Source: Dehalococcoidia bacterium
Lineage (GTDB): Bacteria; Chloroflexota; Dehalococcoidia; UBA6926
Reading direction: 5' to 3'
NCBI GenBank assembly: GCA_009841045.1
Contig: VXMO01000010.1
Location: 6,544 to 70,543 of the forward strand
DNA: 64,000 nt
Part shown: positions 3,951 through 64,000 of the stretch, piece by piece
How the letters are laid out: every line of letters starts with the position of its first letter
Position numbering within the stretch: position 1 is the first letter of the stretch
Made by a program: the position numbers and the translations under genes
The notes under the pieces: generated by a model
What the model saw: the letters and a program-made list of their open reading frames with translations, nothing else
Told to the model about the DNA's origin: nothing
The model's database searches: none

Positions 3951-4018
3951 TCAATCGCCTGCTTTACGGGCGGGGAGGCGTCCGCCTACGATTTGCCTAT
4001 ACCGTTCGAGTCGGCGCT

Positions 4019-8312: not shown

Positions 8313-10343
8313 CTAACCCAGGTCGCCTTGATCACGGCCTGTGGCGTCCCTGAACGGGGAATCGCTCCACGGGAAGATGTTGGCGGCGGTTTCCAGCAAG
8401 GGGAAGTCATCTCCGGGATGGAAGACGGCGACGCCATTCGCCGTGCCAACCCACAGGTTGCCGTCTCGATCAAGCAAGAGTTCATTGACGCGATTGCTCG
8501 GCAACGGTGTTGACTCCGCCGTATAGACCATCCAGAGCTCGTCGTTCACAAGCCCAACGAGGCCGCCGTCCGTGCCGACCCAATAGCGGCCCGTTTCCGT
8601 ATCTTCGGCGAATGAGCGGACGTTGTCGTTGGGGAGGCGTCCATTGGCCCGATTCAACTTGATCCACTGCTGGCCGTCATAGATAGCGACTCCATCACCG
8701 ATGGTTCCGAACCACATGCGGCCCTGGCTGTCTTCACGGGAGGCAAGGACGAGGTCGGTGCGGATATCGGCGTTCTCCGTTTTCAGGCTGTTCCAGATGC
8801 CGTTGTCGAAGATGTTGATGCCCTGCCAGTGCGTGAGCCAGACGCGACCCGCGGAATCTTCCGTGACAACACTGATGATGTTGGTGTTCAGGCCGTCGCC
8901 GCGGTTGTAGAGCGTCCATTCGCCGTCTTCAAGCACGGCCGCGCCGAGGCCGGTGGCAAACCACACCCGGTCCTGGCTGTCGTAGTAGACGTTGAAGAGG
9001 GAGTTGCTGGGAAGTTGCTGCTCCCCTTCGACATCACCGAACCTGTCGTATTCGGTCCATTCACCATTGTCATAGACAGAGCCGCCGCTGAGTGTGGACA
9101 TCCAGACGCGTCCGTGTTTGTCCTCCGCGAGGCCGGTCACGTATCGATAGGCGAGGCCGCTGTTGAACTGGGTAAAGGTCTCCCAAACACGGCCATCAAA
9201 CTTGGCGACGCCCTGGGACGTGGCCACCCAGATGTTGCCTTGGCTGTCTTCAAGGAGCCCGTAAACATCGTTGGCGGGGAGGCCGGTTTCCGCCGGAAAG
9301 AGCCATTCATACGTCTCTTCCTCGGGGTCATATATGGTGACGCCACCGCCGTAGGTCACGATCCAGAGAGTGCCGTCCTCGTCCCAATGCAAGTCCTCAA
9401 CGAAATGGTGGGAGAGTTCGCGCTGCCTGACCCTGAGCGGTTCAGTGAACAAAGTCCCATCAAAGGTTGCAATGCCGGCTTCCGTGCCTACCCAGAGGAT
9501 TTCTTCATCGTTGACGGCGTCTTCATCCGGCGTCTGGAAAACGAGGGCCGTTACGAAGTTGGACGGCATGCCCTCCAGGACTGTGTACGGGTCTTCTCTC
9601 CATTCACCATCGGCATGCAGAACGTTCAGGCCACCGCCGTACGCGCCGATGTACAGATCGCCATCGGAGTTTTCAAGGAAAACGCGGATCTCGTTTGCGG
9701 CCAGGGGGCTGTTTTCTGCTGTGTAGACGGTGCGCTGTCCGTCTGCATCGAACACCACTGCACCGCCCTTTGATCCAACCCAGATGCGGCCCTCAGAGTC
9801 CTCGTAGAAGGTCCAGATACGATCGTCAGGAAGGCCGTTATCCAAGTTGAATGACGTCCATTCACCATCTTCAAGGATGCGGATGCCCTCGCCCCACGTG
9901 CCGACCCATGTCCGGTCCTGACTGTCGAGCAGGAGCGCGGAGACAAACACGTCATCCAGCCCAAGTTCCCCGTCTTGATCAAGGCGCGACCATTGGCCCT
10001 CTTCAAGAACGACGATGCCCTTCTCGGTTCCGACCCAGACGACGCCATGCGGATGGTAGATGAACGACGTGGTGCGCGCGGTGATGCCGCTGTTGGTGGC
10101 GTTGTAGGTGATGAGCGCCCCGTCGTCGTACAGGGACGCGCCGTTTTCGAAGCTCGCGAACCACTTGCGCCCATGGACGTCTTCATAGACTTCCGTGAGG
10201 AACCAGCTGGCGATGCTGGTGTTTTCGACGTTGTAGACGGTCCAAAGGCCGCGGCTTGAATTGGTCTGCTCACCGCCGCCGGCGGCGCCAACGAGGACAA
10301 GCAACGTCAACGACGCCAACGAGATGCCGCGGAATACGTTCAC
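8313..10343 (-). CDS. Secreted protein composed of two-component-regulator beta-propeller (Reg_prop-like) repeats.
   Basis: N-terminal signal peptide. About 14 repeats of the D..G.(I/L)W(V/F)GT..G(L/V) blade motif. No kinase or other output domain. Confidence 0.65.
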   Translation of the reverse strand: MNVFRGISLASLTLLVLVGAAGGGEQTNSSRGLWTVYNVENTSIASWFLTEVYEDVHGRKWFASFENGASLYDDGALITYNATNSGITARTTSFIYHPHGVVWVGTEKGIVVLEEGQWSRLDQDGELGLDDVFVSALLLDSQDRTWVGTWGEGIRILEDGEWTSFNLDNGLPDDRIWTFYEDSEGRIWVGSKGGAVVFDADGQRTVYTAENSPLAANEIRVFLENSDGDLYIGAYGGGLNVLHADGEWREDPYTVLEGMPSNFVTALVFQTPDEDAVNDEEILWVGTEAGIATFDGTLFTEPLRVRQRELSHHFVEDLHWDEDGTLWIVTYGGGVTIYDPEEETYEWLFPAETGLPANDVYGLLEDSQGNIWVATSQGVAKFDGRVWETFTQFNSGLAYRYVTGLAEDKHGRVWMSTLSGGSVYDNGEWTEYDRFGDVEGEQQLPSNSLFNVYYDSQDRVWFATGLGAAVLEDGEWTLYNRGDGLNTNIISVVTEDSAGRVWLTHWQGINIFDNGIWNSLKTENADIRTDLVLASREDSQGRMWFGTIGDGVAIYDGQQWIKLNRANGRLPNDNVRSFAEDTETGRYWVGTDGGLVGLVNDELWMVYTAESTPLPSNRVNELLLDRDGNLWVGTANGVAVFHPGDDFPLLETAANIFPWSDSPFRDATGRDQGDLG

Positions 10344-12136: not shown

Positions 12137-13297
12137 ATGCCTGATCCCATCATCGAACCTCAGGACGCCATTGCGGCTGAGGTGCGCAGGTGGGTCGACC
12201 GGGAGGTTGTGCCGGTCGTTGACGAGCTTGAGCACAACAACACCTTCCCGGACCAGCTCGTGCAGGGGATGCGGGAGCTTGGCCTTTTCGAGTTGATGAT
12301 TCCGCAGGAGTACGGCGGCATCGGCGCGACGTATGTGAGCTATTCCGGCGTGGTGGAGGAACTGGCGCGGGGGTGGATGAGCCTCGGCGGGATTCTGAAC
12401 ACCCACGTCATCATCACGCACCTTGTCGCCTCGTACGGCACGGATGACCAGAAGCAGCGGTATCTGCCGCAGCTGGCGACGGCTGAGCGGCGGGGCGCAT
12501 TGACCATTACGGAGCCGAACGCGGGCTCCGACGTGCAGGCAATCCAGACCGTTGCGGTGAAGGATGGCGACGACTACGTGGTGAACGGCTCCAAGCTGTT
12601 CGTGAGCAACGGGCGGCGCGGCGGCCTATTCGCGATGGCCGTCAAGACGGATCCCCACGTGGACCCGCGTTATCGCGGCATCTCCTGCCTGCTTGTTCAG
12701 CCCGAATACCCGGGCTTCAATGTGACACGCGACATTGAGAAGCTGGGCTACAAGGGCATCGAGGCGTCCGAGCTATCGATGGACGACCTCCGTGTGCCTG
12801 CGAGTAACCTGCTCGGCGGCGAGGAGGGACAGGGATTCTTCCAGATACTGAGCGGGGTCGAGGTGGGGCGCGTGAACACGGCTGCGCGGGCCGTCGGCGT
12901 GGCGCGGGCGGCGTTCGAGGCTGCCGCGACGTATGCGCAGCAGCGGCAGGCGTTCGGCAAGCCCATCGGAGAGCACCAGGCCATTCAGCTCAAACTCGCT
13001 GATATGTACACAAACATCACCGCGGCACGGCTGTTGGCGCGGTGGGCGGCGGGCGTTAAAGACCAGGGCGGGCGCGCCGACACCGAAGTTGGCATGGCCA
13101 AGCTGTTCGCGACGGAGGTGGCGACGCAGGCGACGCTGGAGTCCATGCGGATTCACGGCGGGATAGGCTATACGAAGGAGATGCCGGTGGAGCGGTTCTT
13201 CCGCGACGCGCCCGGCATGATGATCTATGAGGGCACCAACGAGATTCAGCGGACGATCATCGCTCGCAGTGTGCTGCAGCGGTACGCGGTGAGCTAG
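12137..13297 (+). CDS. Acyl-CoA dehydrogenase.
   Basis: ACAD motifs: LTITEPNAGSD, C-terminal catalytic Glu region YEGTNEIQR. Start at ATG 12137, after the lyase stop. Confidence 0.85.
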   Translation: MPDPIIEPQDAIAAEVRRWVDREVVPVVDELEHNNTFPDQLVQGMRELGLFELMIPQEYGGIGATYVSYSGVVEELARGWMSLGGILNTHVIITHLVASYGTDDQKQRYLPQLATAERRGALTITEPNAGSDVQAIQTVAVKDGDDYVVNGSKLFVSNGRRGGLFAMAVKTDPHVDPRYRGISCLLVQPEYPGFNVTRDIEKLGYKGIEASELSMDDLRVPASNLLGGEEGQGFFQILSGVEVGRVNTAARAVGVARAAFEAAATYAQQRQAFGKPIGEHQAIQLKLADMYTNITAARLLARWAAGVKDQGGRADTEVGMAKLFATEVATQATLESMRIHGGIGYTKEMPVERFFRDAPGMMIYEGTNEIQRTIIARSVLQRYAVS

Positions 13298-13316
13298 GCG
13301 AGAATTAGGAGCACTG

Positions 13317-13341
13317 GATTCCTGCTTTCGCGGGAATGACG
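13317..13341 (+). repeat. Hairpin repeat copy: GGATTCCTGCTTTCGCGGGAATGAC.
   Basis: Intergenic between the ACAD and the second MaoC gene. One G-U wobble position in the stem. Confidence 0.6.
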
Positions 13342-13355
13342 AGTGGGAGACGAGG

Positions 13356-13820
13356 ATGCAATTCGGACGGTATCTTGAGGAGTTTGAAGAGGGAGCGGTG
13401 TACAAGCACTGGCCCGGCAGGACGATCACGCAGGCGGACGATATCGCATTCTGCATGTTGACGATGAATCACCACCCCCTGCACATCGACGAAGAGTTCG
13501 GCAAGAACAGCCAATTCGGCCAGAACGTGGTCGTGGGCAACCTGGTTGTGGATATTGCTTTCGGGTTGAGCGTTTCAGATGTTTCCGGTCGCGCCATTGC
13601 GAACCTGGGGCTGGATGAGATCCGATTCCACAAGCCCACGTTCCATGGGGATACCATATACGCGGAGACGGAAGTGCTGTCTGTGCGGCCAAGCGATACA
13701 CGGCCGGATCGGGGCGTCGTGACGGTGGAGACCCGCGCGACGAATCAACGCGAAGAGACGGTGATGACGTTCAAGCGGAGCGTGCTGATTCCGCGAAAGC
13801 CGGAGGACAGTGAGGGTTAG
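13356..13820 (+). CDS. MaoC-like dehydratase (second single-hotdog hydratase).
   Basis: 154 aa. HIDEEFGK...G.N.V hotdog fold. Confidence 0.75.
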   Translation: MQFGRYLEEFEEGAVYKHWPGRTITQADDIAFCMLTMNHHPLHIDEEFGKNSQFGQNVVVGNLVVDIAFGLSVSDVSGRAIANLGLDEIRFHKPTFHGDTIYAETEVLSVRPSDTRPDRGVVTVETRATNQREETVMTFKRSVLIPRKPEDSEG

Positions 13821-13831
13821 GGGGCGTCGCT

Positions 13832-15496
13832 ATGGCAACACGCTCTGAAGAAGACATCCGCGCGGCTCAGACCGCGTGGGAGGAAAAGACGGCCGGCGCT
13901 CGTGAGCGCAAGGAGTCGTTTGGCACAGACTCGATTGAGGGCATCAGCCGTGCCTATTCGCCTGAGAATGTCTCCGATCTGGATTTTCTCAATGACGTAG
14001 GATTTCCGGGCGAATACCCATTCACGCGGGGCGTGCAACCAACGATGTATCGCGGTCGGCTTTGGTCCATGCGGCAGTACGCCGGATTCGGCACGCCGAC
14101 GGAATCTAACGAGCGATTCCGCTATCTGCTGGAGCAGGGGCAGACGGGGCTATCCGTCGCCTTTGATCTCCCAACACAGCTTGGCTACGACTCCGATGAT
14201 TCTCATTCGCTTGGCGAGGTCGGGAAGGTTGGCGTGGCCATCGACTCTCTGCGCGACATGGAGTTGATGTTCGAGGACATCCCGCTGGACAAGGTCAGCA
14301 CGTCCATGACCATCAATGCGCCGGCTGCGCTGCTTGTCGCCATGTACGTGGCTGTAGGCGAAAAGCAGGGTCATGAACCCGCCGCGTTGACGGGCACTGC
14401 CCAGAACGACGTGCTGAAGGAGTACATCGCGCGGGGGACGTATATCTACCCGCCCGGGCCGTCGCTGCGGCTTGCGGCTGATCTGGTTGGCTACTGCGCC
14501 CGGGAGATGCCGCGATTCAACAGCATCTCCATCAGCGGCTATCACATGCGTGACGCCGGCAGCACGGCGGCGCAGGAGATCGCTTTCACGTTCGCCAACG
14601 CCATCGCGTACGGCGAGGCATTTGTTGAGCGCGGCGTCGACGCGGACTCATGGGGGCCGCGCGTCTCATGGATCTTCAATACGCACAACAACTTCCTTGA
14701 GGAGGTCGCCAAGTACCGCGCATTGCGCCGCATGTGGGCGAAGATCATGAAGGAGCGGTTCGGGGCACAGGACCCGCGCTCGTGGATGCTGCGCACGCAT
14801 ACGCAGACGGGCGGATCGACGCTGACGGCGCAGCAGCCGCAGAACAACATCGTCCGCGCAGCGTACCAGGCCATGGCGGCAGTGCTGGGCGGCGTGCAGA
14901 GCCTGGCGCTTTCGTGTTACGACGAGGCGCTTGGCATCCCGACGGATGAGGCGCAGCGTGTCGCGCTGCGCACTCAGCAGATTCTGGCGCATGAGACCGG
15001 AGTGGCGGACACGGTGGACCCGTTGGCCGGTTCGTACTTCGTCGAGTGGATGACCAACAACCTTGAAGAGAAGGCGTGGCAGTACCTGCGCCAGATCGAG
15101 GACCTCGGCGGCGCGGTTACGGCAATCGAGAACGGCGTCATTCAGAAGGAGATCGCGCAGGCGTCCTATGACATGGCGCAGTCCATTGAGAATGGCGACC
15201 AAGTTGTGGTTGGCGTCAATTCGTTCACCGACGGCAATGAGGACCAGTCGCTGCAGGTGTTCCGCGTGGACAACCGTGTTGTTGCGGAACAGCATCAGTC
15301 GCTGGAGCGAGTGCGTGCCGAGCGGAGCGCGGAGGACGTCAACAATACGCTTGAGGCGCTTCGAGGCGCGGCGCGCGGAGACGGCGATCTCATGGAGCCG
15401 ATCCTGGGCGCGGTGCGCGCCTATGCGACGACAGGCGAGATCAGCGGCGCGTTGCGGGATGTGTTCGGTGAGTACACGCCGCCGGTTGAGGTGTAG
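13832..15496 (+). CDS. Methylmalonyl-CoA mutase family, large catalytic subunit (split form without the B12-binding domain).
   Basis: [25 protein letters not shown] and [18 protein letters not shown]. 554 aa, the size of split large subunits. No B12-binding small-subunit gene follows. Confidence 0.85.
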
Positions 15497-15540
15497 GCGA
15501 CAAGTACGATTATCAGAACTAATCGATATGGACGCTCTCT

Positions 15541-15565
15541 GGATTCCCGCTTTCGCGGGAATGAC
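15541..15565 (+). repeat. Hairpin repeat, perfect copy 1 of a tandem pair: GGATTCCCGCTTTCGCGGGAATGAC.
   Basis: 8-bp stem with a 4-nt loop. Lies between the mutase and the reductase genes. Confidence 0.65.
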
Positions 15566-15590
15566 GAAGGGAGTTGGGACGAGACCCGAT

Positions 15591-15615
15591 GGATTCCCGC
15601 TTTCGCGGGAATGAC
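15591..15615 (+). repeat. Hairpin repeat, perfect copy 2 of the tandem pair.
   Basis: Identical 25-mer, 25 nt downstream of copy 1. Confidence 0.65.
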
Positions 15616-15650
15616 GGAGCAGAGAAGTTAGGAAACAGGGGGTAAGGACG

Positions 15651-55831: not shown

Positions 55832-56851
55832 CTAGCGTGTCGGCAGTTGAATGATTGCGCTGCCGCGCACGCACGGCCTTTCGCCGCTGCCCTCGCTCCA
55901 CAGTTCAAGCTCGACAAGGGCCGTGCCATCATCATCTCGCCATTTCCGCGCGACGCGGCCGTAATGCATGATCGTCTCGCCGATGAACGCCGGGGAGCGG
56001 ACCTCTCCGCGGAAATGGCGCAGGATGCCGCGCCGTCCCATCCAACGCGTTGCGGTTTGGGACAGCATGTCCCCGGAGAGATCACCCTGCGCGATCCGCT
56101 CCGGCAGTCCCTCAACCTGCGCATAAGCGCGGTCATAGTGGATCAGGTGGCTGTTGGTCTTGACGAGGCCGTAGAAGAAGACCTGGACGGTTGAGATGAA
56201 ACGTGGCAACGGCGTCAGTTCATCGCCCTCGTCAACGTCTTCCCAGACCGGTTCGTCCGTCCACTGAGGCGGCTCGGCAGACCGCGCTTGTGAGCCGTTC
56301 TCAAGTTGTAAATCGCCCCAATTACGCCTCGTGCCGCCCGATGACGACGGCTGGGGTACAGTGGCCGTCGTGGTGCGGTCAATCATCACTGTGCGACCGT
56401 GCTGGTTCGTGATGGTCATCTCCTTGGTGGTGAAGATCATCGCGCCTGAGCGTCCCTGCTTCTCCTCAACGTCCGTGACCGTCGATTGGCGCGTGAGAAC
56501 ATCGCCGGGCCTGATGGGTTCAATGAACGTCACGTCCGTGCCCGTGTAACGTGACTGCGCGCCGGGGATGCGGAGTTGGAGAGGGTCATTGCGCGTATCC
56601 GGCAGGCCGTCAGGGCGCAGGTCTGCGATGGAGGTTGGCGGGAAGCTGGTGAACCCGGTGAAGAGCGGCGGGGCGACGATGCCGCCGTAGGGGCCGCCTT
56701 TGGCGCGCTCCGCGTCGACGTATGAAGGTCGCACGTCATCGACGGCGTAGGCGTAGCGGGCGATCTCATCAAACGTGATGGGCGGACGGGATTCCGGTTC
56801 GGATGTCCGTCCGAGCAACTCCCGCGCCGCCAGCAGCGCCTCGCTTGCCAT
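55832..56851 (-). CDS. Double-hotdog FAS1-like/MaoC-like dehydratase.
   Basis: A MaoC_dehydrat_N-like N-terminal half plus a C-terminal MaoC hotdog half; 339 aa. Confidence 0.6.
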   Translation of the reverse strand: MASEALLAARELLGRTSEPESRPPITFDEIARYAYAVDDVRPSYVDAERAKGGPYGGIVAPPLFTGFTSFPPTSIADLRPDGLPDTRNDPLQLRIPGAQSRYTGTDVTFIEPIRPGDVLTRQSTVTDVEEKQGRSGAMIFTTKEMTITNQHGRTVMIDRTTTATVPQPSSSGGTRRNWGDLQLENGSQARSAEPPQWTDEPVWEDVDEGDELTPLPRFISTVQVFFYGLVKTNSHLIHYDRAYAQVEGLPERIAQGDLSGDMLSQTATRWMGRRGILRHFRGEVRSPAFIGETIMHYGRVARKWRDDDGTALVELELWSEGSGERPCVRGSAIIQLPTR

Positions 56852-56919
56852 ACGTGTCCGCCTTGATGACTTCTGTGAGTACCCAGCAAGGATACGCCAG
56901 CCATGGCAGGAATGTTTGG

Positions 56920-57384
56920 CTAGCGTGGACGGACGAAGTGCGTGGAGTTGACCAGCGCGAGCAACCTGCCGTTGTCGTCGGTAACTCTCGTGGAGGCCAC
57001 CATCAGGGTTCTGCCCGGATGCGTAACGGTGGACTCAGCTACCAGGGTGCCCTCCTGGGTGTTCCCGACGATTTGGCTGGAGACTGAAACTGCCACGGGT
57101 ATTTCATCCTCATCAAGCTCGCCGCGATAGGCAGCCAGTGTCGCCCACGTCGCCGCGCTGTCTGCAAGAGACACCATGACCCCGGCGTGAACGAACGGCA
57201 ACAGCGCGTACACGCCATCACTAACCGGGGCTTCCACGATGACGCGCTCCGGCCCCGCTTCTCGAATTCGCATCTTCAGGTTGTCCATGAGCGTCCCGTC
57301 ATCGATGCGCTCGTTGAGCCACACGGCGAGCTCTTGCGGTGACAGGTCCTTCGGCAGCTTGTCCATAGAAAGATCCCTTTCCAA
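56920..57384 (-). CDS. PaaI/4HBT-family hotdog thioesterase.
   Basis: 154 aa; HAGVMVSLADSA hotdog thioesterase motif. Confidence 0.7.
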   Translation of the reverse strand: MERDLSMDKLPKDLSPQELAVWLNERIDDGTLMDNLKMRIREAGPERVIVEAPVSDGVYALLPFVHAGVMVSLADSAATWATLAAYRGELDEDEIPVAVSVSSQIVGNTQEGTLVAESTVTHPGRTLMVASTRVTDDNGRLLALVNSTHFVRPR

Positions 57385-57505
57385 CTGTCATCCTCTTGCA
57401 CCAACAGCCTGACACTCTCGGGGGCTTGGTTCTATCCGTTTCTGGTTTCTTAGTCGCACGCAACCTTAGCCCGCGGGAGTATCCGTTGCCCACGCGCTAC
57501 GTCGT

Positions 57506-57528
57506 GTGGCACAGTGAGCGCCATGACT
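57506..57528 (+). repeat. R1 direct repeat, copy 1: GTGGCACAGTGAGCGCCATGACT.
   Basis: Identical 23-mer recurs at 58607-58629. Both copies cover the translation start of a + strand gene. Confidence 0.6.
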
Positions 57529-58035
57529 TTTCCGATTGAACCGGCAGGCCACGACGCCTGCCCGGACGTCATCGAACTGATCCACCGAGTCTACGACGAA
57601 TACGGCTTTATCTGGGACCCCGAGGATGAGCTCCGGGATCTGCTGACCCAGGAGCACGCCTTTCCTTACCGCGCGCCGATCGGCGCGATGTGGATCATGC
57701 GCGACGAGTCCGGTACGGTCGTCGGTTCGATCGCGGCCAATCGGATTGACGGACCGACCGTCGAGCTGCACCGCCTCTATCTCGACGCTCACCTGCGCGG
57801 ACAGGGCTTGGGCCGCCGGCTCGTCGAGACGGCTGTCGAGTGGGCTCGGGATCACGGAGCCTGGCGGATCGAGCTCTGGTCCGACACGCGTTTCGCAGAC
57901 GCCCATCGGCTCTATGAGCGCCTCGGTTACGTCAAGTCGGCCAGGCGCACGCTAGATGACGTCAACGACACGGTGGAGTTCAAGTACGAGCGGAAACTTA
58001 CGGACTCTGACGGTCAAGACTCCCCGGAACATTGA
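57514..58035 (+). CDS. GNAT family N-acetyltransferase.
   Basis: RGQGLGRRLVE acetyl-CoA binding motif. Start is GTG 57514 or ATG 57523, both inside the R1 repeat. Confidence 0.8.
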   Translation: MSAMTFPIEPAGHDACPDVIELIHRVYDEYGFIWDPEDELRDLLTQEHAFPYRAPIGAMWIMRDESGTVVGSIAANRIDGPTVELHRLYLDAHLRGQGLGRRLVETAVEWARDHGAWRIELWSDTRFADAHRLYERLGYVKSARRTLDDVNDTVEFKYERKLTDSDGQDSPEH

Positions 58036-58065
58036 CCCTGATCACTGAGCGCGGGAGATGGAGAG

Positions 58066-58266
58066 TCAGGCGGTCTGGAATTGGACTTGAGAGAGGTCAA
58101 TAGTTGATGACCGCTTTGACAGATGCAGCAACTCGATTCCAACAACGTCATGGGCCTGATTGTAGTCCAGGATGATGCCCGGCGCGACTTGCTCCGTCAT
58201 GACAATCTCCGAATCGTCAAGGTAGAGGTAGAGGGCGTCGGCGTCTTTATCAACTTCGAGCTTCAT
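58066..58266 (-). CDS. DUF2283 family protein (antitoxin-like partner).
   Basis: MKLEVDKDADALYLYL is typical of DUF2283; 66 aa. Confidence 0.65.
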   Translation of the reverse strand: MKLEVDKDADALYLYLDDSEIVMTEQVAPGIILDYNQAHDVVGIELLHLSKRSSTIDLSQVQFQTA

Positions 58267-58523
58267 AGCTGGCCTCTCATCCTATGGTCAAAGAATACTG
58301 TTACCACTCGCCATGGTACAAGACGCGTATTAACTGCCACCAATAGAACCCGATCGCCGAACTCGGGGATAGGACACAAGAAGAGTTCCACCACGGGATC
58401 TTCGGGATCCTGAACCCTTGAAACGGGCTGCGCGATCACTCTCTCCACCCATTCTCTGGGTATCTTTCGCAGGTTCATTCTTGTGACTGCGTGGTGGGAG
58501 AACTCTAAGGGGGGTTGCTGCAT
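58263..58523 (-). CDS. DUF4258 family protein (toxin-like partner).
   Basis: Start at the internal ATG (MQQPPLEFSHHAVTRM...); the longer track ORF is upstream read-through. Overlaps the DUF2283 gene by 4 nt. Confidence 0.55.
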   Translation of the reverse strand: MQQPPLEFSHHAVTRMNLRKIPREWVERVIAQPVSRVQDPEDPVVELFLCPIPEFGDRVLLVAVNTRLVPWRVVTVFFDHRMRGQL

Positions 58524-58590
58524 GACTCCAGTAGTGTACGCGGGGGTATTGGATTGTGCCCTCTCCGTCCCCACGCTGTCGTAGCGTTGC

Positions 58591-61032
58591 GTGAATCGAG
58601 GGAATGGTGGCACAGTGAGCGCCATGACTACGACAAATAGCGAGAACACGGCGCTTGGGCACCTGAAGGTCGTTGAGCTTGGAGGCGGGACGGGCGCGGC
58701 GGCGATGGCGGGGCGGCTGCTTGCAGACATGGGCGCGGACGCTGTGCTCGTTGAGCCGCCCGGCGGGGTCGGGGCGCGAGGTATCGGCCCGTTTGCCAAC
58801 GATGTTGACGATCCTGACCGCAGCCTGACGTTTCTCGACCACAACATCAGCAAGCGCTCCGTGGTTCTTGATCTCGATACGCCAGATGGGCAGGAGTCCG
58901 TTCGCCGCCTTGCCTCATGGGCTGACGTGCTAATCGAGTCGCATGAACCCGGGTATCTTCCAGAGCGCGGCTTGGGCTACGAGAACCTTGCAGATATCAA
59001 CCCCGAACTCGTCTACGGTTCGCTGACGCCGTTCGGCCAGACGGGGCCGTTTGCGAATTACGCATCGACGGAATTGATCATCCAGTCACTGGCGGGGGAT
59101 CCATGGGTCTACGGCGACGATGAGCGCGCGCCGGCGATGGTGCCCGGAGAGGCCACCGCCCGCATCGGCTCCATGCACCTTGTGTACGGCATCCTGCTGG
59201 CGCTGCGGGAGCGACGTTGGTCGACGCGCGGGCAGCACGTGGACGTTTCACAGCAAGACATCGGTGTCTGGCAGCTGGTGAGCGGCAGCATCTCCCGCGT
59301 CGGGCTGCGGAATGAGGTGTTTCGCCGCCCCGGCAAGGCATCTACCGGCATCGGCAGTATCTATCACTGCGCGGACGGCGTCATTCAGTTTTTCCCGTCC
59401 ACGAACGCGCAGTTCCGCGGCCTGGTCACGGGCTGGATGCAGGACTCCACGTTCGACGACGAGGCCTGGGACGACACGAATTTCCGCCGCGACAACTACG
59501 ACATCATCGACGTCCGCATGAGAGAGTTCATGGGCAAGTTGACGGCTGCGGAGATCGAGGAAAGCGCCGCCATCCATGACGTGCCGATGGCGCGCCTGTC
59601 CACCATGGCGGAGTTCGTTGAGCACCCGCATACCGTAACCCGCCAGTTCATTGTCGATGCGAGCCACCCTGTTGTCGGCGACTACCGCGCGCCCGGCCCG
59701 CCGTACCGGTTCAAGGGGACGCCGTGGGCGATTCATCGCCCTGCTCCACGCATCGATGAGCATGGCGATGAACTGCGCAAGATGATCGAGGGGCTATCGT
59801 CAACGCCGCCCGATCCGACCAAATACGTTGCGCGGCGGCACGACCGGCGCAAGCAGCCGCTTGAAGGCATTCGCATTGCCGACCTGAGCCGTGTGTTTGC
59901 CGGGCCCTTTGGCACGATGCTGCTGGGATTCCATGGCGCGGAGGTCATTCGGATAGAGTCGGAGGACCTGCCGGCTTTCAGGATGCCGATGCAGCCGAAC
60001 TACCCGGAACTGAACCGCAACAAGCAGTGCGTGACCATCGACATGCGCTCAAAGAAGGGGCAGGAACTCATCAAGGGCATCGTCGCACAGTCGGATGTCG
60101 TTGTTGAGAACTTCCGCCCCACCGTCATGGAGCGCATGGGGCTTTCCTACGAGGAGCTGCGCAAGGTTCGCCCGAATGTGATTATGGCATCTATGTCCGG
60201 GTACGGTATGGATGGTCCGATGCGAGACCGACCTGCTTTCGGGCAACTGCTGATGGCCTTCGGCGGGCTGTCATACATGTGGGGGCATCCTGAGAGCGAT
60301 ATCGATACGCGCCCCAAGAATGCGTATTCCGACTTCACGCTCGGCGCGCAGGCGGCGATGGCCGTGATGATGGCGCTGGAGCACCGCGACCGGACCGGCG
60401 AGGGGCAGCACATCGAGAGTTCCCACGTTGAGGGGCTGGCGGCACTGCTGGGGCCGGAGATGCTGCGCTACCTGATCAACGGTGAAAGCCCGCAGCCGCG
60501 CGGCAACGCGAGTGACATCTACGCTCCGCACGGCGTGTATCCCTGTTTGGGTCACGACGCGTGGGTTTCTATCGCGGTCGAGAACGATGAGCAGTGGGGC
60601 AAGCTGGTTGCGGTGATGGACGAGCCGACGTGGGCGAATGACGGCAAGTTCGCGACGCAGGAGAATCGGCTCGCCAACCGCGCCGAACTGGATGAGCGCC
60701 TGAGCGGGTGGACCTCGGAACGGTGGGCGGGACAGGTGCAGGTTGCGCTGCAGGCCGTCGGCGTGCCGTGCGGCGCGGTGCAGAACCCGCTGGGCCTGCT
60801 TGCCGATCCGCAGCTGCAGCATCGCGGGACCATCGTGACAGCGCACCACGACCCGGACTGGTGGGGCACGATGCAGCACCCCGGCGTTTCACTGCACCTG
60901 AGCGCGACGCCCGGCTGGGCGACGGACTCCACGCCCGGCCTCGGCCAGGACAATGATCGCGTCTTCAAGCAGCTTCTCGGGCTGACCTCCGCAGAGATAG
61001 AGGCGCTAACGGCGGAGGGGGTTTTGAGATAG
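58591..61032 (+). CDS. Tandem-fused family III (CaiB/BaiF) CoA-transferase with two complete domains.
   Basis: Two successive CoA_transf_3-like halves: LKVVELGGGTGAAAMAGRLLADMGADAV...HEPG... and IRIADLSRVFAGPFGTMLLGFHGAEVIRIE...NFRP.... 813 aa. Confidence 0.8.
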   Translation: MNRGNGGTVSAMTTTNSENTALGHLKVVELGGGTGAAAMAGRLLADMGADAVLVEPPGGVGARGIGPFANDVDDPDRSLTFLDHNISKRSVVLDLDTPDGQESVRRLASWADVLIESHEPGYLPERGLGYENLADINPELVYGSLTPFGQTGPFANYASTELIIQSLAGDPWVYGDDERAPAMVPGEATARIGSMHLVYGILLALRERRWSTRGQHVDVSQQDIGVWQLVSGSISRVGLRNEVFRRPGKASTGIGSIYHCADGVIQFFPSTNAQFRGLVTGWMQDSTFDDEAWDDTNFRRDNYDIIDVRMREFMGKLTAAEIEESAAIHDVPMARLSTMAEFVEHPHTVTRQFIVDASHPVVGDYRAPGPPYRFKGTPWAIHRPAPRIDEHGDELRKMIEGLSSTPPDPTKYVARRHDRRKQPLEGIRIADLSRVFAGPFGTMLLGFHGAEVIRIESEDLPAFRMPMQPNYPELNRNKQCVTIDMRSKKGQELIKGIVAQSDVVVENFRPTVMERMGLSYEELRKVRPNVIMASMSGYGMDGPMRDRPAFGQLLMAFGGLSYMWGHPESDIDTRPKNAYSDFTLGAQAAMAVMMALEHRDRTGEGQHIESSHVEGLAALLGPEMLRYLINGESPQPRGNASDIYAPHGVYPCLGHDAWVSIAVENDEQWGKLVAVMDEPTWANDGKFATQENRLANRAELDERLSGWTSERWAGQVQVALQAVGVPCGAVQNPLGLLADPQLQHRGTIVTAHHDPDWWGTMQHPGVSLHLSATPGWATDSTPGLGQDNDRVFKQLLGLTSAEIEALTAEGVLR
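58607..58629 (+). repeat. R1 direct repeat, copy 2 (identical 23-mer), at the start of the CoA-transferase gene.
   Basis: See copy 1 at 57506-57528. Confidence 0.6.
60976..61021 (+). repeat. R2 direct repeat, copy 1 (3' end of the CoA-transferase CDS).
   Basis: 46 nt, 42/46 identical to 61690-61735. Confidence 0.55.
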
Positions 61033-61073
61033 AGGTGAACTGTGGGCTTAGCCGAGTGCCCTATACTCTTGTT

Positions 61074-61325
61074 ATGAATACCAGTGACGAGTTGCTCAAA
61101 CGGATTACAGCGCGTCCCGATGTCTTTGGCGGCAAGCCAATCATTCGCGACATGCGTATCTCCGTAGAGTTGATTTTGAGCCTGCTAAGTCAAGGGGAGT
61201 CCGTGGAGAGCATCCTGGATGATTATCCGGGACTTGAGCCTGACGACATCCGGGCTTGCACAGCCTACGCCCACGCGGTGATAGCAGGTGACAGCCTCTC
61301 AGCGGTTTCTGTTGCAGGGTCGTGA
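61074..61325 (+). CDS. DUF433 domain protein (antitoxin-like).
   Basis: PDVFGGKPIIRDMRISVELIL is the DUF433 signature. Start set at ATG 61074. Confidence 0.65.
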   Translation: MNTSDELLKRITARPDVFGGKPIIRDMRISVELILSLLSQGESVESILDDYPGLEPDDIRACTAYAHAVIAGDSLSAVSVAGS

Positions 61326-61678
61326 GGTTTCTCGTTGATCGGTGTGCCGGTCGGCGATTAGCTGAGTGGTTACGCTCCGAAGGGCACGATGTCTTTGAAG
61401 CGATTCAAGTCAATCCAGACCCGGGAGACCAGGCACTCCTGGAACTTGCGGCAACTCAAAATCGAGTCTTCATCACTATTGACACTGATTTTGGTGAACT
61501 GATTTTCCTCCACGGAGTGGCTCATGCGGGACTGGTCCGCCTGCCTGATGTCCCATCAGAGCGGCGAATCGAGTTGATGACAGAAATCATTACACGCTAC
61601 AGCACTCAGTTAGAGGAGCGCGCCATCATCACAGTAACTGGCAATCGTATAAGGATTACGCCCAGTACAGTTAACTGA
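61322..61678 (+). CDS. DUF5615 / PIN-like (Mut7-C-like) protein (toxin-like).
   Basis: MRFLVDRCAG...FITIDTDFG acidic-residue pattern of PIN-like DUF5615. Overlaps the DUF433 gene (GTGA). Confidence 0.65.
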   Translation: MRFLVDRCAGRRLAEWLRSEGHDVFEAIQVNPDPGDQALLELAATQNRVFITIDTDFGELIFLHGVAHAGLVRLPDVPSERRIELMTEIITRYSTQLEERAIITVTGNRIRITPSTVN

Positions 61679-61689
61679 AGTGAGAGGCG

Positions 61690-61735
61690 CTCGGCCTCAC
61701 CTCCGCAGAAATAGAGGCGCTAGCGGCGGAGGGGG
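61690..61735 (+). repeat. R2 direct repeat, copy 2 (non-coding remnant of the CoA-transferase 3' end).
   Basis: See copy 1 at 60976-61021. Confidence 0.55.
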
Positions 61736-61796
61736 TATTGCCGTAAGAGGAGAGCTAGTAAAATGGCTTGAGCAATAGTTATATCGGGGGAATATT

Positions 61797-62939
61797 GTGC
61801 GAATTTCGCGTCCAGCCGTCGAGATCATTCAAGGGAATCTCAAACTCTATCTCACTTACCTGACCCCACGGGACTTGGATGAGGAAGGTTTCTACGAAGT
61901 AGACAAGCTGGATGCCACGCCCGGCGCAAGCAAAGGCTACCAGAGGATCTTGAACGAACGCCGTGTCGGTGCACTCGACCGCTACTTGAGGGAGGCGCAC
62001 GAGCACGGCTATGCGAATCTTCCAACCACAGTCTTCTTGGCTACCGAAGGTAAGGTAAGGTATAACGAAGATAAGGGAGTGATTTCCTTTGATACAAAGA
62101 ATGTTTGCCCATTTAATGTTGTCGATGGCCAGCATCGAATTGAGGGGCTTCGCCGAGCGAGCAGGACGGACAATGACCTTCGATCATTTCGGCTCCCTGT
62201 AACTATTGCCACTGGCCTCGATGAGGCCCACCAGATGTACCATTTCTTTGTAGTGAATACAACACAGGTTCCTGTTGATCAGTCGCTACAGCAACAAATA
62301 GCCGCTAGATTCGAAGACATGAATCGGGTGGAGAAACTCCCATACATTCCACATTGGCTTCAGCATCGAGTGCACACAGGACGGGATCAACGGGCTCTGC
62401 AAATTGTCACAAAGCTCAATACTCATCGAAAATCCCCTATGAAGGGCCGTATACAGATGGCCAACGATCCAGAAGGTGGCCGCAATAAGATCAAGCAATC
62501 CTCAATTGTGAAGATCATACAAGATCAGGTGTTGACCTCAGGCAATCCACTTGAAGGCAACGAAACCTCCGCGGACGTCCAAGGGAACATTCTATTGAAC
62601 TTGTGGATTGCCATCGACAAACTCTTCGTCGATGGTCGAAATAGAGATGACACTGTAATCTACAAGAGCAACGGCCTATTTTGGGGCTTTGGCATTTCGA
62701 GATGGGTTTTCAACGTGCTCTACTCAAGCACAGATAACTTTACTGTCGATTCCATAACAAAGACGATTCAACAAGGGCTCGACGAGTTACCTGATGAGGC
62801 GGCGGCTATAGCAAGCCCTGATTGGTGGCTGTCCGGTGGAGGAAGGGCCAGTGCTCTGAACAGAGCTAATGCGCGGGTTTACATTGAAGCCTTCAGACAA
62901 GGTCTCGCGAAGGCTCGAAACCGCGAGATTCGGGTATGA
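61797..62939 (+). CDS. DGQHR domain protein (DndB family). Low GC.
   Basis: NVVDGQHRIEGL contains the eponymous DGQHR motif. GTG start with a GGGGGA Shine-Dalgarno; 380 aa; GC about 50%. Confidence 0.75.
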   Translation: MRISRPAVEIIQGNLKLYLTYLTPRDLDEEGFYEVDKLDATPGASKGYQRILNERRVGALDRYLREAHEHGYANLPTTVFLATEGKVRYNEDKGVISFDTKNVCPFNVVDGQHRIEGLRRASRTDNDLRSFRLPVTIATGLDEAHQMYHFFVVNTTQVPVDQSLQQQIAARFEDMNRVEKLPYIPHWLQHRVHTGRDQRALQIVTKLNTHRKSPMKGRIQMANDPEGGRNKIKQSSIVKIIQDQVLTSGNPLEGNETSADVQGNILLNLWIAIDKLFVDGRNRDDTVIYKSNGLFWGFGISRWVFNVLYSSTDNFTVDSITKTIQQGLDELPDEAAAIASPDWWLSGGGRASALNRANARVYIEAFRQGLAKARNREIRV

Positions 62940-63268
62940 TTCTTAGAGCACTGACCTCAGAAATGACTGATCGGGTGGCATTCCGCCTGAATCATTTGCG
63001 CTTTGTACCCGAGGAGTCGGGCTGCTATGCACTGGCAAGCATTGACGAAATCGTTCTCTATGTGGGAAAGACCACGAACTTACATCGCAGGCTAGAAGAT
63101 CACTTGTCCGATCCCGAAAAAACTGGCATCACACCCAGCGGTAGAGCGGTTTGGTTTTACTACGGATTCTGGCCAGAAGAACGCATCGAACATGTCGAGA
63201 TGCAACTCTTGCGCGATCACAAGATGGTTGAGGGCGTCTGGCCAATATTGAACAAGACTGGCCCTTGA
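62936..63268 (+). CDS. Small GIY-YIG nuclease domain protein.
   Basis: GCYALASIDEIVLYVGKTTNLHRRLEDHL matches GIY...YIG plus the conserved Arg/Glu region. ATG overlaps the DGQHR stop (ATGA). 110 aa. Confidence 0.75.
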   Translation: MILRALTSEMTDRVAFRLNHLRFVPEESGCYALASIDEIVLYVGKTTNLHRRLEDHLSDPEKTGITPSGRAVWFYYGFWPEERIEHVEMQLLRDHKMVEGVWPILNKTGP

Positions 63269-63874: not shown

Positions 63875-64000
63875 ATGCCAAACATTGAGTTCTATCACTG
63901 GACGACTTGAAACACGTGCAAGACGGCGAAGGCGGCGCTTTCGCAGGCAGGGCATGAGTTTGCTGAGCGTGACTTCTTCAAGGACCGGTTCAGCAAGGAT
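63875..64000 (+). CDS. ArsC/Spx-family thioredoxin-fold protein, 3'-truncated, with an in-frame TGA at 63908-63910 at the first Cys position of the CxxC motif (candidate selenoprotein).
   Basis: ATG 63875 has a GAGAGGA Shine-Dalgarno. Translation is MPNIEFYHWTT-(TGA)-NTCKTAKAALSQAGHEFAERDFFKDRFSKD. The frame stays open to the window end and aligns with the Spx/ArsC start YxxxxCxxCRKAxxxL, with U replacing the first Cys. Confidence 0.5.

Follow-up and report, generated by a model that had tools for sequence, protein, structure and literature searches.

In the 64-kb stretch of contig VXMO01000010.1 from a Dehalococcoidia bacterium that is analyzed here (64,000 nucleotides (nt), hereafter the window), a block holding a GNAT gene and a DUF4258/DUF2283 toxin-antitoxin-like gene pair lies at the 5' end of a tandem CoA-transferase gene, bracketed by two perfect copies of a 23-bp direct repeat. 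The account favored here with reasonable confidence is that the repeat is the duplicate of a selected cis-element, a 20-nt box, and that the block, which is composite, was gained through recombination between lineages and not through the integration of an element. The host group consists of uncultured, probably sponge-associated Dehalococcoidia, and the locus would provide a natural example of a streamlined symbiont genome (~1.9 Mb) gaining a foreign gene without mobile-element machinery. In this process, a 10-nt microhomology would set the start codon of the newcomer on a resident, probably leaderless, promoter, and the displaced CoA-transferase gene would keep a promoter through the allelic copy that came with the adjacent toxin-antitoxin-like pair. 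Current concepts are left unchanged by the finding, which concerns ordinary recombination-driven gene gain with promoter capture and calls for no new mobile element.

The relatives used for comparison were obtained by scanning a genome collection with the CoA-transferase, which provided 18 loci from Dehalococcoidia/Chloroflexota metagenome-assembled genomes; these and the other sequences compared are designated by L numbers. Two genomes, L031 and L032, served as outgroups in the CoA-transferase comparison, and the truncated locus L018 was left out of the CoA-transferase tree. The alignment of the box comprised 25 copies from 21 genomes and was anchored on the ATG. A second public assembly, L022, which may rest on the same reads, is 100% identical to the window across the 12,478 nt that they have in common.

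The 23-bp repeat in the window

The 23-mer GTGGCACAGTGAGCGCCATGACT occurs on the + strand in two exact copies, at 57506-57528 and 58607-58629, with no third copy in the window at up to 3 mismatches and 0 matches in 100 dinucleotide-preserving shuffles, which bears out the perfect repeat around the GNAT and DUF4258/DUF2283 genes described in an earlier note on this DNA. As that note had also stated, each copy spans the start codon of a + strand gene, copy 1 covering the ATG of the GNAT gene and copy 2 that of the tandem CoA-transferase gene. The features of the region are as follows.

56920..57366, - strand: gene for a hotdog-fold (PaaI-like) thioesterase (Pfam 4HBT; NCBIfam hotdog thioesterase), the left neighbor of the CoA-transferase gene at empty sites
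57486..57491, + strand: TTGCCC, a -35-like hexamer in the resident upstream allele (P_A), 18 nt before CACAGT
57506..57528, + strand: repeat copy 1, with the 20-nt box TGGCACAGTGAGCGCCATGA at 57507-57526; aligns collinearly with the one copy present in L018, L001, L011, and L002
57507-57515, inside copy 1: proposed extended -10 TGG+CACAGT, with GAGCGCC as the spacer before the ATG at 57523, which now serves the GNAT gene
57518..58055, + strand: segment homologous to the GNAT locus of other genomes, comprising GCGCC, the GNAT coding sequence, and ~20 nt of the nuoA promoter region (CATTGACCctgatcac..gcgcggg)
57523-58035, + strand: GNAT gene, starting on repeat copy 1
58044..58058, no strand: junction J2, where the 3' flank of GNAT meets the 3' flank of the pair, with the short microhomology CTGxGxGCGGG
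58044/58051-58629: pair, P_B, and box copy 2, matching L012 at 87%
58066..58266, - strand: DUF2283 gene, putative antitoxin-like (Pfam PF10049, E = 5.8e-15); protein 92% identical to the L012 copy
58263..58523, - strand: DUF4258 gene, putative toxin-like (Pfam PF14076, E = 6e-08); protein 88% identical to the L012 copy
58524..58606, + strand: second upstream allele P_B, with -35-like TTGCGT at 58587-58592; arrived with the toxin-antitoxin-like pair
58607..58629, + strand: repeat copy 2, with the box at 58608-58627 and the CoA-transferase start ATG at 58624
58624..61032, + strand: gene for a tandem (2x) family III CoA-transferase (Pfam CoA_transf_3, two stretches, E = 7e-179), the conserved anchor gene

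In its full form, the box reads TGGCACAGTGAGCGCC-ATGA, 20 nt. The earlier note had pointed to weaker similarity extending upstream of both copies; such similarity exists, but it is not collinear, as CCGTTGCCCACGCGCTACGTCGT abuts copy 1, whereas the similar CCGTCCCCACGCTGTCGT sits 24 nt farther from copy 2, with AGCGTTGCGTGAATCGAGGGAATG intervening. The sequence upstream of copy 1 is P_A, which matches L018/L001, and the sequence upstream of copy 2 is P_B, which matches L012/L006 and whose upstream type, gcgttgcgtgaat, is present in most relatives. Because these upstream sequences differ, the two copies in the window represent different alleles.

The box as a conserved control element

The 20-nt core before the CoA-transferase gene is unchanged in 21/21 genomes, and in 23/25 box copies overall, despite the fact that the CoA-transferase DNA is only 81-90.5% identical among the 18 species-level relatives (87-97% at the protein level, and 76-85% in the outgroups L031 and L032). 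The sequences adjoining the box upstream differ completely between the gene arrangements of the 18 loci. Across the 25 aligned copies, gCgTTGC is kept at -40..-34 in every upstream type, followed by a variable spacer and by invariance from -16 to +3, and codons 3-9 past the box are hypervariable. For the tandem CoA-transferase gene of this Dehalococcoidia lineage, the box serves as the core element of control and start. That the two window copies agree over 23 nt is attributed to purifying selection, 20 of the 23 positions being clade-invariant, and not to recent duplication. This provides a caution for annotation, namely that a perfect direct repeat around a gene block may reflect purifying selection instead of a fresh target-site duplication.

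The arrangement of the conserved positions resembles a promoter. A TTG hexamer (TTGCCC, TTGCGT, TTGAGT, or TTGCAT) is retained 17-18 nt before CACAGT in four upstream types that are unrelated to one another, and the comparative logo displays TTGC at -37..-34, TG at -16/-15, and CACAGT at -13..-8, with the TG one base before the hexamer and the A at hexamer position 2 located 12 nt before the ATG. In bacterial leaderless genes, the -10 signal (TANNNT) lies ~12 nt before the start codon, and a leaderless share of ~5% of genes has been predicted in the few Chloroflexi analyzed (PMC3160421). The box shares with the promoters of such genes (PMC3160421) a -10-like hexamer whose second base is A, 12 nt before the ATG, and whose sixth is T, as well as the extended -10 TG, the -35 TTGC at 17-18 nt, and, in the P_A type, the lack of a Shine-Dalgarno sequence; it differs from them in that its hexamer starts with C and not T, and in that all 20 positions are invariant. 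The comparison suggests that the box combines an extended -10 promoter, a discriminator, and the start codon, giving an mRNA that would be leaderless or nearly so. In this sigma-70-type arrangement, a -35 TTGCnn would be followed by a spacer of 17-18 nt, the extended -10 TGg-CACAGT, 7 nt, and the ATG, with the mRNA beginning at, or adjoining, the start codon.

Several other interpretations of the box were considered and rejected. An Rfam scan of 56800-61900 for known RNA families returned one spurious sub-threshold miRNA match, and folding revealed no stable or shared structure that would indicate an RNA hairpin (z-scores of 0.5 and -1.4). A sigma-54 reading (TGGCAC-N5-..GC) was discounted by reasoning, as transcription would start ~8 nt inside the coding sequence with no downstream start codon. 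A genome-wide repeat or att-like motif was likewise rejected, as searches of metagenome, viral, and related-locus sequences gave no non-chance box outside the CoA-transferase locus: no extra copy was present in ~500 kb of related sequence, where a relaxed search yielded one chance match inside a gene of L013; the metagenome contigs held just one more CoA-transferase locus (L021) and a chance-level soil match (L020); and the viral contigs gave no match. The 20-nt box is an uncharacterized, extremely conserved cis-element that is probably an ordinary regulatory box.

The block as an insertion

The comparison with related genomes that the earlier note had suggested as a check reveals the thioesterase gene directly beside the CoA-transferase gene in four relatives. 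In L001, L002, L011, and L018, the order is MaoC(-)-thioesterase(-)|CoA-transferase(+), with nothing between the last two genes and a single copy of the motif, and three of these four are the closest relatives of the window overall. The majority of the remaining relatives have MaoC(-)|CoA-transferase(+), and L012 has MaoC-DUF2283-DUF4258|CoA-transferase, without GNAT and without thioesterase. In the CoA-transferase tree, the window falls inside the thioesterase/P_A clade, as (L011,(L001,(window,L002))). When 57529-58629 (1,101 bp) is removed from the window, a gap-free junction is restored against L018, L001, L011, and L002. Because the window is nested among empty-site genomes and the restored junction is gap-free, the 1,101-bp block is confirmed as an insertion gained in the lineage of the window, as the earlier note had proposed in placing it at the 5' end of the CoA-transferase gene.

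In a mosaic test of the CoA-transferase gene, which has little power at ~10% divergence, the first 150 nt exhibited 14 differences to L001/L018 and 26 to L012. The 5' end of the gene is thus recipient-like, which places the right-hand exchange in or adjoining the box. The last 300 nt are closest to L006/L016, and this hints at recombination near the cassette at the 3' end of the gene.

The duplication of the box is also observed in genomes without the GNAT gene. In L017, a gene for a signal-anchored protein of 261 amino acids, without a match in Pfam or NCBIfam, is located between MaoC and the CoA-transferase gene and is bracketed by a repeat of 68 nt, 97% identical, which ends at the same ATGA (9069-9136 and 9937-10004). 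Homologues of this protein (55-60% identity) occupy the same slot in L031 and L032, where the order is a P_B-type region, box, membrane protein, and then a P_A-type region, box, CoA-transferase. The box copies are at 3993-4014 and 4856-4877 in L031 and at 3994 and 4850 in L032, the first box of L032 having ATA for ATG and CACATT for CACAGT. These arrangements indicate that the state with two boxes and two promoter alleles is old and independent of GNAT, and the common single-box states can be derived from it via deletion or replacement.

The two-box lineages bear on the possibility that the block is ancestral and that the empty relatives arose from deletions between the two box copies, which is considered unlikely. 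In its favor, precise deletion can take place between direct repeats of 20-68 nt, and the majority state, MaoC|P_B-box-CoA-transferase, is most simply such a deletion from the two-box state of L031/L032. The nesting of the window within the thioesterase/P_A clade, however, would require at least three identical losses as against one gain; moreover, the GNAT gene is absent from all 18 related loci (0/18), and its family is otherwise found only at the nuoA locus of larger Chloroflexota genomes, among contigs long enough to judge.

Composite structure of the block

The two parts of the gained block match different sources. The GNAT segment aligns with L023, L026, and L027 at 82-85% identity, starting exactly at 57518 (blastn). 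Homologues with 77-85% identity were present in a CoA_transf_3|GNAT-nuoA context in 5/5 lineages of other Chloroflexota that were looked up, the native order being prs-groES-groEL-CoA_transf_3(380 aa, -)|GNAT(+)-nuoA-nuoB. The native sequence upstream of GNAT is ggtaacGCGCC(A/G)TGACC, and the left junction of the block, J1, is the 10-nt microhomology GCGCCATGAC at 57518-57527 that it has in common with the box; this is exact in L026, and L023 and L027 have G for the A of the start codon. On the 3' side, the homology stops within the nuoA promoter, of which the -35 TTGACC is kept and the -10 TACGAT is lost. These matches indicate that the GNAT gene was copied from the native CoA_transf_3|GNAT-nuoA locus of other Chloroflexota and is foreign here.

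Since the GNAT homologues begin with MTF, MTY, or MSF, the Met-Thr start of the window gene is its own native N-terminus. The idea in the earlier note that GNAT reuses the duplicated start region therefore needs to be divided: the gene does sit on the start region of the CoA-transferase gene, but its first two residues were not borrowed from it. A look-up of the 173-aa GTG-start form of GNAT found no record. A functional tie between GNAT and CoA-transferases was also considered and rejected; with each half of the window protein, the 380-aa CoA_transf_3 protein of the donor locus has an identity of only 28%, and the shared family is treated as a coincidence.

Two further observations concern the GNAT flank. 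At 58031-58058 of the window, the -35 half of the donor nuoA promoter (CATTGACC) has been carried along, and the join to the toxin-antitoxin flank has removed the -10 TACGAT. In donor-type Chloroflexota, the GNAT-nuoA spacer is also an insertion spot, holding ~600 nt of hairpin-type repeats (GTCCCCG…CGGGGAC) in L035 (4486-5112) and a HicB-like antitoxin gene in L034 (4734-5084).

The second part of the block begins at J2, where the homology to the GNAT locus ends at 58055 and that to L012 begins at 58044-58051. Window positions 58051-58700, which include the pair and the upstream region of the CoA-transferase gene, are 87% identical to 9424-10077 of L012, which indicates that the pair arrived together with the second promoter allele P_B, as in L012. 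The GC content of the toxin-antitoxin-like part is 0.50-0.55, as compared with 0.60-0.68 in GNAT and the neighboring genes. The DUF4258 and DUF2283 genes have the layout of type II systems, being small and co-oriented with a 4-nt overlap and recurring as a pair in different contexts, namely at the same site in L012 and at the PyrK|MaoC boundary in L002, L005, L031, and L032. Neither gene matched an NCBIfam model, the assignments being to Pfam DUF families only, and a search for DUF4258 homologues gave a single 60% match on a 1-kb contig, which carries no context information. The pairs at the other boundary, between the convergent PyrK-like and MaoC genes, are ~50-60% identical to that of the window (L002 7644-8295, L005 8396-8844, L031 2371-2744, and L032 1541-1914). 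The same family of toxin-antitoxin-like pairs thus sits at several gene boundaries of the conserved block of genes in different genomes.

Proposed mechanism and remaining alternatives

Homologous and microhomology-mediated recombination between lineages is the most likely origin of this structure. In the lineage of the window, the CoA-transferase gene received a composite block of 1,101 bp precisely behind its codon 2. The first piece of the block is the GNAT gene, copied from its native locus and joined to the resident box through GCGCCATGAC, so that its ATG-ACN start falls exactly on the start position of the promoter; the second piece is the toxin-antitoxin-like pair, carrying P_B and a box as an allelic upstream copy. 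A RecA-type exchange in or adjoining the invariant box is proposed for one side, and microhomology-mediated illegitimate joins (J1 and J2) for the other, with related and co-resident lineages as the source of the donor DNA. The structure fits homology-facilitated illegitimate recombination (HFIR) as well as it fits the single-crossover integration of a circularized fragment. As a consequence of the insertion, GNAT would now be transcribed from the resident P_A and the CoA-transferase gene from the imported P_B, and the toxin-antitoxin-like pair may help to retain the block.

Several points weigh against this account. No genome displayed the donor arrangement that it predicts, with GNAT adjoining the pair and P_B; a right-hand crossover within or very near the 23-mer represents a very short anchor for homology-facilitated recombination; and the nearest relatives are ~10% divergent in DNA, too distant for tracing the order and number of events. 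The box searches covered the window, ~500 kb of related sequence, and metagenome and viral contigs. A consensus promoter/terminator scan calls no site, because CACAGT matches TATAAT at only 3/6 positions, and since the scan found no sites, the promoter reading draws on comparative conservation only. The invariance of all 20 positions exceeds what a promoter usually needs and hints at an extra function of the box, for which a mini open reading frame (ORF), ATG-GCA-CAG-TGA (3 codons, overlapping an in-frame GTG), is a candidate; an overlapping operator, in the form of the imperfect palindrome TGGCAC-N5-GCGCCA, is possible as well.

The earlier note had explained the repeat by the integration of a small cassette that left a target-site or attachment-site duplication, and a mobile cassette of this kind, comprising GNAT and the pair and inserted by a transposase or site-specific recombinase, would account for a perfect 23-bp direct repeat around a 1.1-kb block and for the existence of empty sites. 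This explanation is now regarded as very improbable. The block holds only GNAT, DUF2283, and DUF4258; no transposase, integrase, terminal inverted repeats, or attC was found, and no inverted repeat pairs the ends of 57529-58606. A Pfam scan of the nine proteins between 55832 and 62939 detected no tyrosine or serine recombinase, which a genomic island or prophage would be expected to carry, and none is among the called genes of L022; the attC-like imperfect palindrome and the intI gene that would mark an integron cassette were likewise not found, nor was an Rfam match. The core of the repeat is invariant in every relative, including genomes without the block, and was already doubled around another gene in L017, L031, and L032; P_B upstream of copy 2 is allelic and not specific to the insert, so the flanks are different alleles and not continuations of one duplicated target. 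The block itself combines two unrelated pieces that meet at microhomologies, the pair with P_B occurring alone in L012 and GNAT alone elsewhere, and its left junction is a microhomology with the native upstream sequence of GNAT. The motif is absent from viral contigs and appears in metagenomes only at the CoA-transferase gene and in one chance-level match.

The box could also be conceived as a dedicated, lineage-specific site of recombination and expression, at which a host factor acting in trans inserts promoterless genes at the ATG. If true, it would represent a minimal gene-capture slot without integrase or attC that regenerates the box for the downstream gene each time. Three unrelated genes (CoA-transferase, the 261-aa membrane protein, and GNAT) are indeed fused to the box at the same nucleotide, and all 20 of its positions are invariant, yet only three types of cargo occur in 21 genomes, the ~500 kb of related sequence holds no extra box, no recombinase gene is present among the genes examined around the site, and the 10-nt microhomology accounts for the GNAT junction without a specific enzyme, which leaves this idea with very little likelihood. 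Least probable is an assembly chimera, in which haplotypes or loci were misjoined at the shared 23-mer, for although the source is metagenome-assembled and related strains with different haplotypes at the locus coexist in public data, only ~10 nt are common to the native GNAT locus and the box, which is not enough for an assembler to join them on k-mers, the arrangement is identical in L022, with the reservation about its reads given above, and all ORFs are intact.

The 3' end of the CoA-transferase gene and neighboring loci

A second direct repeat is associated with the other end of the CoA-transferase gene, where it brackets a further toxin-antitoxin-like pair.

60976..61026, + strand: copy A of the second direct repeat, the 3'-terminal 51 nt of the CoA-transferase gene
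61035..61678, + strand: DUF433 and DUF5615 (PIN-like) toxin-antitoxin-like pair (Pfam), right after the CoA-transferase stop codon
61689..61746, + strand: relic copy B, the last 18 codons and stop of a CoA-transferase allele (LGLTSAEIEALAAEGVLP and the stop codon), 90% identical to copy A

The 51-nt repeat recurs at 61690-61740, and copy B aligns to the 3' end of the gene (12352-12412) in 9 relatives. Of the five differences between the copies over the 51 nt, four are synonymous, and the fifth (T to A) gives a residue that also occurs in other functional alleles; past the repeat, the last sense codon changes from R to P and the stop from TAG to TAA. Because the differences are mostly synonymous or allelic and copy B has its own stop, it is regarded as a relic of the 3' end of another allele and not as a decayed in-place duplicate. 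The DUF433/DUF5615 pair directly after the CoA-transferase stop codon is found in 0/18 relatives, L014 having DUF433 alone ~80 nt after it. It seems that small insertions bringing in the end of the neighboring gene as an allelic copy recur at the CoA-transferase locus.

Other observations were made in the same region. In L010, the pattern recurs with a 57-nt repeat (13685-13741 and 14367-14423, 91% identical) that brackets a RibD_C-family gene and derives from the 5' end (start codon and 18 codons) of the next gene, which is ArsC-like; in the upstream relic, TAA stands in place of the TGA/selenocysteine codon of this gene. The window contains at 63875-64000 an ArsC/Spx-family gene with an in-frame TGA at codon 12 (63908-63910; YHWTT-U-NTCK, a UxxC motif). 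This TGA is kept in the window and in 17/17 relatives reaching the gene (L001-L017), and the conserved ORF continues in 16/17, which suggests that the gene probably encodes a selenocysteine protein. A low-GC stretch of the window (0.45-0.55) at 61797-63268, within the variable sequence past the CoA-transferase gene, carries first a DndB-like gene (61797-62939) and then a gene with a weak GIY-YIG domain (~62936-63268); L014 has a DndB-like gene, 50% identical, at the same place, and the stretch may be a small defense island.

Farther away, three copies of a ~50-nt element (13291-13342, 15516-15567, and 15566-15617 of the window) with the palindromic core CTGGATTCCyGCTTTCGCGGGAATGACG resemble hairpin repeats of the REP type. 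In L004 (18478-19008), L005 (18921-19459), and L008 (18304-19246), a 95-aa gene (MSAYLIADVEITDES) occurs as tandem paralogues; a conserved leader of 40-66 nt (GTGAGTGCATTCCCGTGCCGCAGTGTGTTACAACTCAG), common to all of these paralogues and located before each one, may be a cis-regulatory RNA or DNA element. This repeated leader was considered as a parallel to the box and rejected, as tandem paralogues with their own leaders represent a different phenomenon.

Comparison with known systems

The CoA-transferase locus may be likened to the attI/Pc region of integrons in that it resembles an expression slot, where a gene placed beside a resident promoter would become expressed and the downstream gene would still be expressed. 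In contrast to integrons, it has neither intI nor attC, downstream expression would depend on the second promoter copy, and the diversity of cargo is minimal. Another type of comparison is offered by e14 and phage 21, which integrate at icd of Escherichia coli, and by islands in tRNA and ssrA genes, all of which carry a replacement end of their target gene; these elements extend over many kb and have an integrase of their own. The inserts described here measure 0.7-1.1 kb and lack a recombinase, but share with them the principle that the target gene stays intact via an incoming allelic gene end differing mostly at synonymous sites, which is clearest at the 51-nt 3' repeat.

A further comparison is provided by HFIR and Campbell-type integration. 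Microhomology of 3-10 bp is documented at illegitimate joints, and after integration by a single crossover the homologous segment flanks the insert in two copies (PMC3240628). The window differs from the experimental cases (PMC3240628) in that its anchor would be ~20-23 nt of perfect identity and not hundreds of bp, no recipient DNA was lost, and two illegitimate joints (J1 and J2) are needed, so that probably more than one event took place; P_A and P_B flank the boxes, and the recipient-like 5' end of the CoA-transferase gene would leave an anchor of ~20-30 nt. In common with these systems, it would have one homologous junction, and it has otherwise illegitimate joints at short microhomologies, GCGCCATGAC at J1 and CTGxGxGCGGG at J2, of which the 10 nt of J1 stand at the top of the documented 3-10 bp range, and its insert of ~1 kb needs no element-encoded enzyme.

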